64,000 nucleotides of DNA, from contig JAPETS010000017.1 of NCBI GenBank assembly GCA_026023565.1, positions 1 to 64,000 on the forward strand. Reading direction: 5' to 3'. Position numbers and translations under genes: made by a program. The stretch comes from Cirrosporium novae-zelandiae (Eukaryota). Of this stretch, positions 12,056-14,348 are shown piece by piece; position 1 is the first letter of the stretch, and each line of letters starts with the position of its first letter. The notes below the pieces were generated by a model. It was not told the DNA's origin. It saw only the letters and a list, made by a program, of their open reading frames with translations, and made no database searches.

Positions 12056-12784
12056 ATTGAGTTTGTTAATTGGTGATAGCGATTGATAGCGGGTGATTGT
12101 TAATTGATCTTTTGTTCAATGCAGGGACCTATCTCTAGACGTTTGGACTGGAATATGTCAAAACCCCCCAAAGTGTTTATTTATAAGTACGAAGTATTCC
12201 GTGACAAGTATGGTAGACCTCAGGTAGTTAATTTCTCTTTTGTTTTTGTTGTCTTGTCTTTTTGCGCAATAGCTTTTTACTTGTAAAGGAGGTCGTCGCC
12301 CTTTCCGATGTAGCTTGAAGGCGGGGTTAATCCGGGGCTAAAGCATGGTGTCTACATGAGGGGTTTACGGTGTGTGTATAGATAGATATTGAACATGATG
12401 GTATTGGCACACTCAATTTCGAGCACAAAGAGGTGTTTGAACAAGCTATGCTGACTCTTTTATAGGGCTGAGAACAATGTCACAAGTCAGTCGGTCGGTC
12501 GGTCGGTCGCGTTTTGAACTTGGCTTCAGCTTCTACTTCTTCTACTTAAATGTACCGTTCCACATTCCACATCCCACATTCTGTATTACTTTACTACAAT
12601 TTCACCCCCCCCAGTTGCTCAGTGATAGTTCTCATCACAAGCTCCAATAAACCATCACCTCTTCATACATACAAGACTAGAAGCTATAACACCTCGATCC
12701 ATCGTACTTCCTGCTATTCTTTCCTCCATCTATTCACACCCATCCTTCTATCCCACCACCCAAAACCACAATACAAACACGGAC

Positions 12785-13529
12785 ATGGCTTCATCTCCAG
12801 CTCCATCAAATGGTGGTGAACCACGACAAGAAGAGGTCAAGCAAATCGCGTTCCGATTCTGTCGCGAATGGTAAGCCCTTTCCCCAACATTTCATTTTTA
12901 CGCTTTGCTAATATTCCTATAGTTCCAACATGCTCTACCCTAAGGAAGATCGAGCCAACGACACTCTAATGTTCGCCTGTCGGACATGCCAATTTAGCGA
13001 GCCAGCAACTTCAGCATGCGTTTTCAGGAATCGTCTCGAGACTTCCGTTGGTGATACTGCCGGCGTTACCCAAGACGTTGGCTCTGACCCAACGGTTGGT
13101 CCACCATATCTTTGTACTCTATGTGGTCAAGTTATAAGGTGTAAGCGCTGCGGAGGCTTTGAATGTACTAGTTTCACTGCCCCGGAGTGTCTTATATCTC
13201 CGAATTCAGATTCTGAATCAGACTCAAGTTCAATCTCAGTAAATTCAGGGAGTTCGGTGAAGTCAGGGAAAAGCTAGTTTCCATTGCACCAATGCGAGAT
13301 TTTTTTGTCGCAGCAGTAGCTGACATTGGAACGTTGTCATTAGCTGCCTAGATCGAATAAAGAATGTCCTAATTGTCATGAAATGGAGGCTGTTTATTTT
13401 CAGTCTCAGCAACGCTCAGCCGAAACCGGCATGGTTAGTAACATTCTCCTTGTCCAATATTTGATGGCACTGACTGTGTTGCAGAAATTATACTACGTTT
13501 GCTGCTCGTGTGGTAATGTCTTTACGTGA
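12785..13529 (+). CDS. RPB9: RNA polymerase II subunit Rpb9, 130 aa (exons 12785-12870, 12923-13094, 13344-13433, 13485-13529)
   Basis: N-terminal ribbon FRFCRECSNMLYPKED...CRTC, linker DVGSDPTLPRS, and C-terminal ribbon ECPNC...YFQSQQRSAETGMKLYYVCCSC. Confidence 0.97.
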
Positions 13530-13766
13530 CCAAGGCTATTGAATAGAGGTGGAATTTGCTAGCAATGGTGTTGGACGGAGTTGACTATTGTTTTTGGATC
13601 TGATGCATGGCATTTTTGTTATGAAAGAGCCCTGAAGCCTAGCACAGAGATGGAAATCCCCCGGGATAACTTGATTATGGATATGGATATCATTGATATT
13701 GAATGTTATTGGTCGAAGTTGTTTTATAAGCTGGTGCAGAATGCACAGGCATTACCTGTCTCCAGC

Positions 13767-14348
13767 TTATAATTGCATAGGAGCAAGAGAAAGGATTTTT
13801 GACCACTGTCGAGATTGCAATTCCTTCCCAACCACGCCTTAGGTATATACAATTAGCAAAAGTTCTTCCATGCATCGTAGGAGCTAGATGGGACTCACTA
13901 TTCAGTCTTGTCCCGATAGGATCTCCAGCTTTACTTATCAATACACAAGCATTGTCGTCAAATCTAACTACACTCCCATCCGGTCTGGACATCTCCTTGG
14001 CTGTACGCACCACCACCGCATGACGGAGATCACCCCGTCGTACTTTGTTGGCAATAGATGTGCTGACGGAACCGACGGTCTCGGGGCCAAAGGACCGCTG
14101 TTTCTGAACGACGACAATAATGCGATCGCCTTTTCAAGCATTAGAAGGTGAACAAGAAGAGATTGAGACTAGAATAGAATAGGGCATACCAATCCTAGCA
14201 GCCGTTTTCCTGCGAAGAACGGCGGCGCACTCAACAATTGCAGCACCGGAGTTGTCGATGCAATTAAGCATCGTCTTGATTTGGAAATTGGTTAGCATTG
14301 ACTCAACAACCATGAAGAATATTAGGTGGGTACCTTTAGTTGTATCAT
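13767..14348 (-). CDS. MRPL38: Mitochondrial ribosomal protein uL14m, 4 exons
   Basis: [16 protein letters not shown]...[10 protein letters not shown]...HAVVVRT...[17 protein letters not shown]...PIGTR...WSKILSLAP. Confidence 0.95.

Follow-up and report, generated by a model that had tools for sequence, protein, structure and literature searches.

The window analysed here is a stretch of 64,000 nucleotides from Cirrosporium novae-zelandiae (assembly GCA_026023565.1, contig JAPETS010000017.1, positions 1 to 64,000 of the forward strand), and it contains an RPB9 gene, encoding the Rpb9 subunit of RNA polymerase II (Pol II). The second intron of this gene holds an open reading frame (ORF) that continues the protein in frame beyond exon 2 into a cysteine-bearing segment, which probably serves as an alternative end for the subunit. 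A 110-residue RPB9 protein, P0001, has been deposited from a metagenome-assembled genome of the same species (Xylobotryomycetes) and is used below for comparison. The gene and the features of its second intron are laid out as follows.

12785..12870, plus strand: RPB9 exon 1, with the ATG at 12785 and the first CxxC of the N-terminal zinc ribbon (FRFCREC); the N-terminus agrees with P0001 and with orthologues.
12871..12922, plus strand: RPB9 intron 1, 52 nt (GTAAGC...TAG), whose removal restores the FCRE-C-SNMLYP seen in orthologues.
12923..13094, plus strand: RPB9 exon 2, the remainder of the N-terminal ribbon (Zn1) and the linker, ending in VGSDPT (GAC CCA ACG encodes DPT).
13095..13343, plus strand: RPB9 intron 2, 249 nt, with donor GTTGGT, a CTGAC branch-like site at 13320-13324 and the AG at 13342-13343.
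13095..13277, plus strand: the candidate alternative coding end in intron 2, 60 codons and a TAG, with conserved frame and motif and a signature of purifying selection.
13110..13166, plus strand: the conserved core of this ORF, LCTLCGQVIRCKRCGGFEC, with two CxxCG knuckles, four residues between them, and a fifth Cys.
13191..13274, plus strand: the Ser/Asp/Glu-rich tail of the intron-2 ORF, predicted to be disordered.
13239..13262, plus strand: two in-frame GT sites in the intron-2 ORF (13239 GTAAAT and 13257 GTGAAG) from which, in principle, the knuckle could be joined to exon 3 without loss of frame.
13344..13433, plus strand: RPB9 exon 3 (LPRSNKECPNC...ETGM), in which the canonical TFIIS-like C-terminal ribbon (Zn2) begins.
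13434..13484, plus strand: RPB9 intron 3, 51 nt (GTTAGT...CAG).
13485..13529, plus strand: RPB9 exon 4, KLYYVCCSCGNVFT followed by the TGA stop, identical to the C-terminus of P0001 and containing the CCSC knuckle.

Exon 2 matches the Pfam family Zn_ribbon_RPB9 (PF02150; E = 6.9e-07, 29.5 bits for a cut-off of 25.2) and exon 3 matches Zn_ribbon_TFIIS (PF01096; E = 2.9e-09, 37.1 bits for a cut-off of 21). The protein encoded by exon 2 is 100% identical to P0001, 84% identical to RPB9 of Lasallia pustulata and 82% identical to the 15 kDa subunit of Xylona heveae, and exon 3 reaches a mean column identity of 87% over 35 loci. The P0001 model splices DPT to an acceptor at 13402-13403 and drops LPRSNKECPNCHEMEAVYFQ, the first Zn2 knuckle. 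Every one of the 35 orthologous exon 3 sequences that were aligned retains this stretch, and the splicing of the model is therefore probably an annotation error.

The original prediction, made from the sequence of the window, had pointed to intron 2 as much longer than the other two (which it put at about 50 nt), and its 249 nt do compare with 52 and 51 nt for introns 1 and 3; the weak donor it named is read directly at ACG|GTTGGT. In frame 0, 60 codons of the intron (13095-13274) precede the first stop, a TAG at 13275-13277. They read VGPPYLCTLCGQVIRCKRCGGFECTSFTAPECLISPNSDSESDSSSISVNSGSSVKSGKS: VGPPYLCTLCGQVIRCKRCGGFEC comes first, followed by a Ser/Asp-rich stretch. The read-through product has 146 residues (86 + 60) and ends at 13277, before exon 3, all of which agrees with the numbers claimed. 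The spacing of the cysteines, CxxCG-x4-CxxCG (that is, CxxC-x5-CxxC), and the Ser/acidic tail had also been described correctly, but the ending quoted for the peptide, DSSS*, omits its last 14 residues. Over the read-through region (12924-13274) PF02150 is the sole Pfam match, so that one of the two ribbons typical of the Rpb9 family is found there.

For a chance test, the body of intron 2 was subjected to 5000 dinucleotide shuffles in which the donor hexamer and the last 30 nt were held fixed. An ORF of at least 60 codons arose in 208 shuffles (≈4%), any CxxC inside the ORF in 84, six or more Cys in two, and the C..C-x(3-7)-C..C pattern in none. The open frame by itself is unremarkable; the cysteine pattern is not a product of chance, which bears out the claim that two CxxCG knuckles would be unlikely in neutral intron DNA. 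Rfam (12300-14100, E up to 10) returned no known RNA family or small nucleolar RNA, just a 9-bit chance match to a long non-coding RNA, and Tandem Repeats Finder detected no array in 12900-13500, the Ser/Asp tail not being scored as a tandem repeat. The extra length of intron 2 is therefore explained neither by a known RNA nor by a tandem array.

A protein search with exon 2 only gave 775 matches at E up to 0.001, of which the best 120 were classified. Eighty-two of these read through into C..C-x(3-7)-C..C, 11 have the canonical continuation (DPT-LPRSNK) and 27 have another one, with 21 of the 27 still carrying CxxCG when read by eye. The consensus of the read-through forms is DPTVG-LP-x-F-CTLCG-xEIx-CxxCG, followed by an acidic stretch. 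The V plus G, S or C found after DPT is a translated donor, GTN-NGT, meaning that these models read through the same splice site. All four Cys are invariant in our alignments A1 and A2, the rows of which were selected for carrying the motif. A profile search over 1.84 billion cluster representatives yielded 1148 matches with E no higher than 0.001. Among the best 150 of the 1148, 135 were previously unseen, comprising 78 four-Cys forms, 23 with CxxCG, 21 with neither and 13 missed by the anchor pattern, 11 of which carry the motif by eye. With the 60-residue peptide alone, a word-indexed protein search gave no candidate sharing three 5-residue words, and relatives surfaced only with the exon 2 query.

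Besides Cirrosporium itself, the carriers named in the exon-2 search include a large number of lichen fungi, four species of Aspergillus (A. terreus, A. affinis, A. udagawae and A. ochraceoroseus), Polytolypa, Arachnomyces, Paracoccidioides and Hymenoscyphus albidus (the last with a three-Cys form, CLLCG..V.CEGR). Further carriers are Trichoderma atroviride, T. gamsii, T. viride, Tolypocladium, Macrophomina, Acrodontium, Stereocaulon, Parastagonospora nodorum, Rhizodiscina and Trizodia. In T. atroviride the read-through form is represented by the 192-residue model TRIATDRAFT_302057. Some of these fungi we take to belong to Lecanoromycetes, Candelariales and Coniocybomycetes; the Aspergillus and Onygenales carriers are presumably Eurotiomycetes and H. 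albidus a member of Leotiomycetes, while we place Trichoderma and Tolypocladium in Sordariomycetes, and Macrophomina, Acrodontium, P. nodorum and Rhizodiscina in Dothideomycetes. As judged from sequence, conservation of the ORF, of the motif and of their location within RPB9 extends over Xylobotryomycetes, Lecanoromycetes, Eurotiomycetes, Leotiomycetes, Sordariomycetes and Dothideomycetes at least.

Public databases hold the read-through form as unremarked models named 'hypothetical protein', 'RPB9' or 'RPB9-like zinc ribbon domain-containing protein', and public RPB9 gene models are split into canonical, read-through and mis-spliced versions; a conserved read-through intron would explain this inconsistent annotation of RPB9 across fungi. 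A full-text literature search, with supplementary files outside its scope, gave no paper describing an Rpb9 isoform or an intron-2 ORF. An intron-encoded alternative C-terminus on a core Pol II subunit, conserved across major Pezizomycotina classes, is so far undescribed in the literature found. The gene of Schizosaccharomyces pombe, rpb9, has four introns according to an excerpt of PMC13300194.

Scanning metagenome contigs with alignment A1 provided 80 loci with DNA sequence. The end of exon 2 was recognised in 78 of 81 sources (the 80 loci plus the window), and 72 of these 78 have canonical exon 3 (LPRSNK.CP.C....AVFFQSQQR..ETGM), preceded by an AG, at a distance of 159-621 nt downstream; in the remaining six the contig ends 64-468 nt past exon 2. 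Wherever this could be checked, the cysteine-bearing ORF sits inside intron 2 of an ordinary RPB9 and not in a paralogue. Removal of identical introns left 58 non-redundant orthologous intron 2 sequences, all of which have the first CxxC knuckle and the frame-0 ORF. The first stop is reached after a median of 57.5 codons in frame 0, versus 30 in frame +1 and 17.5 in frame +2, and frame 0 is the longest in 43/58 introns. Intron 2 has a median length of 215.5 nt, which correlates with the length of the ORF (r = 0.85), and the median gap between stop and acceptor is just 66 nt: the excess length of intron 2 is essentially the ORF. A stop lies ahead of the acceptor in 57/58 introns, and intron length is a multiple of three in 16/58, the chance rate.

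Two further observations concern the structure of these genes. Intron 1 is absent in 12/80 loci (L043, L053, L056, L064-L067, L073, L075 and L077-L079), leaving a single uninterrupted ORF from the ATG through the intron-2 segment. The alternative form is the longest ORF at such loci and will be reported by gene callers that are blind to introns. At locus L072 (612-791) the motif is degraded (CLLCVSLWLC...), the donor is GTGAGT and exon 3 is intact; this lineage may be losing the alternative end, with an improved donor.

Nucleotide conservation peaks over the first ~60 nt of intron 2 and drops downstream. Over the 58 introns, the conserved Gly that follows the first knuckle is encoded by GGT (20), GGC (19), GGG (9) or GGA (8), and both TGT and TGC occur in the Cys columns. 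Mean pairwise differences at the three codon positions are 0.46/0.39/0.63 in the 17-codon core, vs 0.18/0.16/0.56 in exon 2. The pooled ratio between the proportions of nonsynonymous and synonymous differences (pN/pS) is 0.54 in frame 0, vs 0.96 and 1.0 in the shifted frames. We also computed this ratio for 27 phylogenetically independent pairs, using each locus once and with exon-2 distances of 0.04-0.30. Exon 2 has a ratio of 0.10. The core has one of 0.34 (162.5 synonymous differences over 316 sites and 195.5 nonsynonymous differences over 1115 sites; p = 2e-22 in a one-sided binomial test). In the aligned rest of the ORF it is 0.59 (p = 8e-11), a value that the protein-guided alignment biases downward. 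These figures indicate that the intron-2 ORF evolves under purifying selection on the protein. Gap runs in multiples of three number 3/4 and 2/2 before the earliest stop, vs 2/17, 12/28, 2/6 and 0/2 later, counts that are too few to weigh. A gene antisense to intron 2 was rejected on account of stops, which interrupt every antisense frame within the first 90 nt in 30-40 of the 58 loci.

The donor of intron 2 is conserved too. Among 52 distinct loci it is GTTGGT in 26, GTGGGT in 18 and GTAGGT in 3, so that GTNGGT, with G at +4, accounts for 47/52; the intron 3 donors of the same genes are mostly GTAAGN or GTGAGN, with A at +4. Either this non-consensus hexamer is conserved as a consequence of having to encode Val-Gly, or poor splicing is selected, or both. 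In the window, positions 13086-13101 are near-palindromic across the donor (CCAACG|GTTGG), and the predicted fold draws a 4-bp stem over the splice site. A donor hairpin was rejected as a general feature, the flanks of the 58 loci having no consistent complementarity.

Structure prediction with AlphaFold2 for a full-length read-through model (P0017, 83-row alignment) gave a predicted local distance difference test score (pLDDT) of 81-89 in the N-terminal ribbon; the knuckle scored 75-76 and the tail less than 60. In a 117-residue fragment from the window the knuckle block scored 72 and the tail 53-57. The generic Cys4 pattern CxxCG-x4-CxxCG is present and widely conserved, at a pLDDT of 72-76 in these metal-free predictions. 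Pfam assigned no family to the tail, the best score being that of zf-CCHC_2 (PF13696; 13.5 bits, E = 0.065, below the cut-off of 27). A CCHC zinc knuckle was thus discarded: the score is under the gathering threshold and the motif has no His. Sequence searches of the PDB gave chance-level matches only, both for the single peptide (PRDM9 zinc fingers at E = 0.014, desulforedoxin at E = 0.4) and for the profile, and the ESM Atlas gave no usable match or cluster for the tail. A tail-only profile (A3) run against proteins of 208-2000 residues had no match at E up to 0.01, and hence no free-standing or fused homologue of the knuckle, which is weak evidence. Derivation of the knuckle by duplication of exon 3 (Zn2) was likewise set aside as unsupported, with an hhalign probability of 22% over 16 columns.

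The tails of the relatives are acidic (median D+E 0.22 vs K+R 0.05). Some lineages have recurring tail motifs, ..FDLSEMS.MEEED.. and ..DPF.EYDEE..; the tail in the window is Ser/Asp-rich and has neither. The first motif stands in a very acidic stretch in a lineage that has the first knuckle only (CTYCG/CTLCG; L064, L065, L075, L077, L078; P0125, P0131, P0177, P0250). The aromatic-acidic motif ..DP[FY].EYDEE.. is frequent in lineages including Trichoderma and Tolypocladium (L053, L043; P0155, P0162, P0167, P0180, P0201 and others); it looks like a short linear interaction motif, and a pattern of the xYDEE type occurs in 37/252 tails.

Taken from the sequence comparisons, the reading that we consider probable is that RPB9 intron 2 is an alternative last coding segment giving a second form of Rpb9. 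The weak donor ACG|GTTGGT would be left unused, via intron retention or possibly polyadenylation inside intron 2, and translation would continue past DPT to produce a 146-residue variant. Such a variant would retain the Zn1 ribbon and the whole linker, with a Cys4 knuckle and a disordered Ser/acidic tail replacing the TFIIS-like Zn2. Its four Cys are expected to bind one zinc ion, and via Zn1 and the linker it would take the Rpb9 site on Pol II, resulting in a polymerase that lacks the Zn2 ribbon and bears an acidic appendage. How much of each Rpb9 form is made would be determined by the conserved poor donor. In yeast, as reported in an excerpt of PMC9638876, ATG1 transcription and autophagy were rescued by Rpb9 1-52 (Zn1 plus linker) and were unaffected by mutations in Zn2; an Rpb9 form without Zn2 can therefore be active.

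The original prediction had offered a Pol II subunit variant and an autoregulatory switch as two possible readings, and had proposed comparing frame, cysteines and dN/dS in orthologous introns. These comparisons support the subunit variant: frame and first knuckle are kept in 58/58 introns, four Cys are found in 82 of the best 120 exon-2 matches, and pN/pS falls below 1 in frame 0 only.

Several points weigh against this reading. Expression of the isoform is a prediction from evolutionary comparison, and all the read-through 'proteins' are computational gene models, of a kind that arises whenever a predictor misses the weak donor. The 80 metagenome loci were ranked with a query that contains the tail and hence overstate prevalence, for which the exon-2-only search is the appropriate measure. 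Three Cys only (CLLCG..V.CEGR) are present in 20/58 introns, and some lineages have two (CTYCG), so that a strict Cys4 zinc site is not universal. The confidence of AlphaFold2 in the motif is just moderate, and the predicted template modelling scores are low (0.25-0.32). The tail past the core is poorly conserved, with the downward bias in its ratio already mentioned, and all pN/pS values are uncorrected proportions. Lastly, the in-intron stop (ending at 13277) is 156 nt upstream of the exon 3/4 junction (13433), beyond the 50 nt that mark a premature stop for nonsense-mediated mRNA decay (NMD), and an mRNA that keeps intron 2 but splices intron 3 could be an NMD target and yield little protein.

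A more far-reaching extension, which we put forward as doubtful, is that filamentous ascomycetes make two kinds of Pol II, in one of which the Cys4 knuckle and acidic tail of the variant (aromatic-acidic in many lineages) would recruit or exclude partners such as TFIIE, TFIIH and TFIIS, altering start-site choice, proofreading or transcription-coupled repair, with the poor donor setting the ratio. If this were true, the effect of Rpb9 on elongation and fidelity could close a feedback loop between the quality of the polymerase and the splicing of its own subunit.

Among the alternatives, the one that survives best is regulated unproductive splicing, in which the stop in a retained intron 2 would lead to NMD and tune Rpb9 dosage, the peptide being functionless. 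Conservation of the weak donor fits this idea, as do the classic NMD geometry of a stop 156 nt before the exon 3/4 junction, the stop that precedes the acceptor in 57/58 introns and the intron lengths, which are multiples of three in just 16/58; a study linking Rpb9 level, fidelity and intron retention (bioRxiv 10.1101/026799, known to us from an excerpt) points in the same direction. Yet any stop would suffice for such a switch, ideally an early one, and the median open frame here extends over 57.5 codons, with Cys and Gly codons kept amid synonymous turnover and a core pN/pS of 0.34. Because a poison intron needs just a stop, and not conserved Cys and Gly codons, the subunit variant is favoured over a pure NMD switch, which we hold to be unlikely. 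Unproductive splicing can hold alongside a functional peptide, not in its place, and an added regulatory role in dosage control may coexist with that peptide.

It is very unlikely that conservation at the 5' end of intron 2 reflects a function of the RNA or DNA itself, for instance as a silencer of splicing, an RNA structure or a binding site, with the ORF as a by-product. Conservation is indeed highest in the first ~60 nt, and the intron in the window folds slightly better than its shuffles (z = -2.0; 9/200 shuffles as good). However, variation is concentrated at frame-0 third positions, the conserved Gly uses all four codons, shifted-frame pN/pS is near 1, leaders of variable length before the motif preserve the frame, no Rfam family was found, and antisense stops occur in 30-40/58 loci.

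We see little room, too, for the knuckle being an internal insert, joined to exon 3 by an in-frame donor so that Zn2 is kept. Both candidate sites in the window (13239 GTAAAT and 13257 GTGAAG) are in frame, at 48 and 54 codons, LPRAIKRCPNC comes after the knuckle in a Letrouitia model (P0111), and two representatives show this '4Cys+Zn2' arrangement; but consensus-like in-frame donors are present in 2/58 loci, no more than at the other offsets (5 and 3), and one of the best 120 exon-2 models has such a form. That the intron is neutral DNA whose frame is open by chance, and that read-through gene predictions have propagated it in the databases, is hardly credible: long ORFs do arise in 208/5000 shuffles and the word-based search with the peptide alone found nothing, but the four-Cys motif arises in 0/5000, is common to several classes and comes with detectable purifying selection.

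Around RPB9, two other features of the window were recorded. Immediately downstream and convergent, on the minus strand at 13690-14133, an open frame matches Ribosomal_L14 (PF00238, E = 4e-21); it probably represents a single exon of a gene of the uL14 family, which may be mitochondrial. About 280 nt upstream of the RPB9 ATG, positions 12487-12510 hold a short (GTCG)n microsatellite, cagtcggtcggtcggtcggtcg.

Rpb9 shapes start-site selection, proofreading, the response to TFIIS and transcription-coupled repair in yeast, and to our knowledge core Pol II subunits are generally regarded as single-form proteins. If a second, selected form of Rpb9 exists, it would amount to a regulated change in the make-up of the polymerase in a group to which Aspergillus, Trichoderma and numerous pathogens of plants and animals belong.

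Compared with canonical Rpb9 (POLR2I), the putative variant would come from the same gene and promoter and share the first 86 residues (Zn1 and linker), with exons 3-4 encoding the normal Zn2. The alternative end, in contrast, has no PF01096 match, its knuckles are 4 residues apart rather than the ~24 of the ribbon in exons 3-4, and it continues into a disordered tail rich in acidic residues or in Ser. The C-terminal ribbons of TFIIS, Rpa12, Rpc11 and archaeal TFS, inhibitory TFS paralogues included, sit at the rim or pore of the polymerase and alter cleavage and fidelity, and the RPB9 case resembles them in that the zinc module at the C-terminus varies within a single protein family. Those proteins, however, have separate genes and a full ribbon, whereas here a single gene would make alternative use of an intron to encode a much smaller module; common descent of the tail with the exon 3 ribbon is unsupported because the profile-profile probability is just 22%.

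Intron-retention isoforms with functional read-through peptides are known in fungi, for instance PTC7 of S. cerevisiae and alternative C-termini that carry peroxisomal signals. As in PTC7-type isoforms, an intron kept in frame would add or replace a protein segment, in a ratio set by splicing efficiency; unlike them, RPB9 encodes a core Pol II subunit, a whole domain would be replaced, and the arrangement is conserved across several Pezizomycotina classes. Like the poison introns that trigger NMD, RPB9 intron 2 has a weak splice site and an internal stop codon that is followed, over 50 nt further on, by an exon junction. It differs in that the codons ahead of the stop are under protein-level purifying selection, for which a poison intron has no need.

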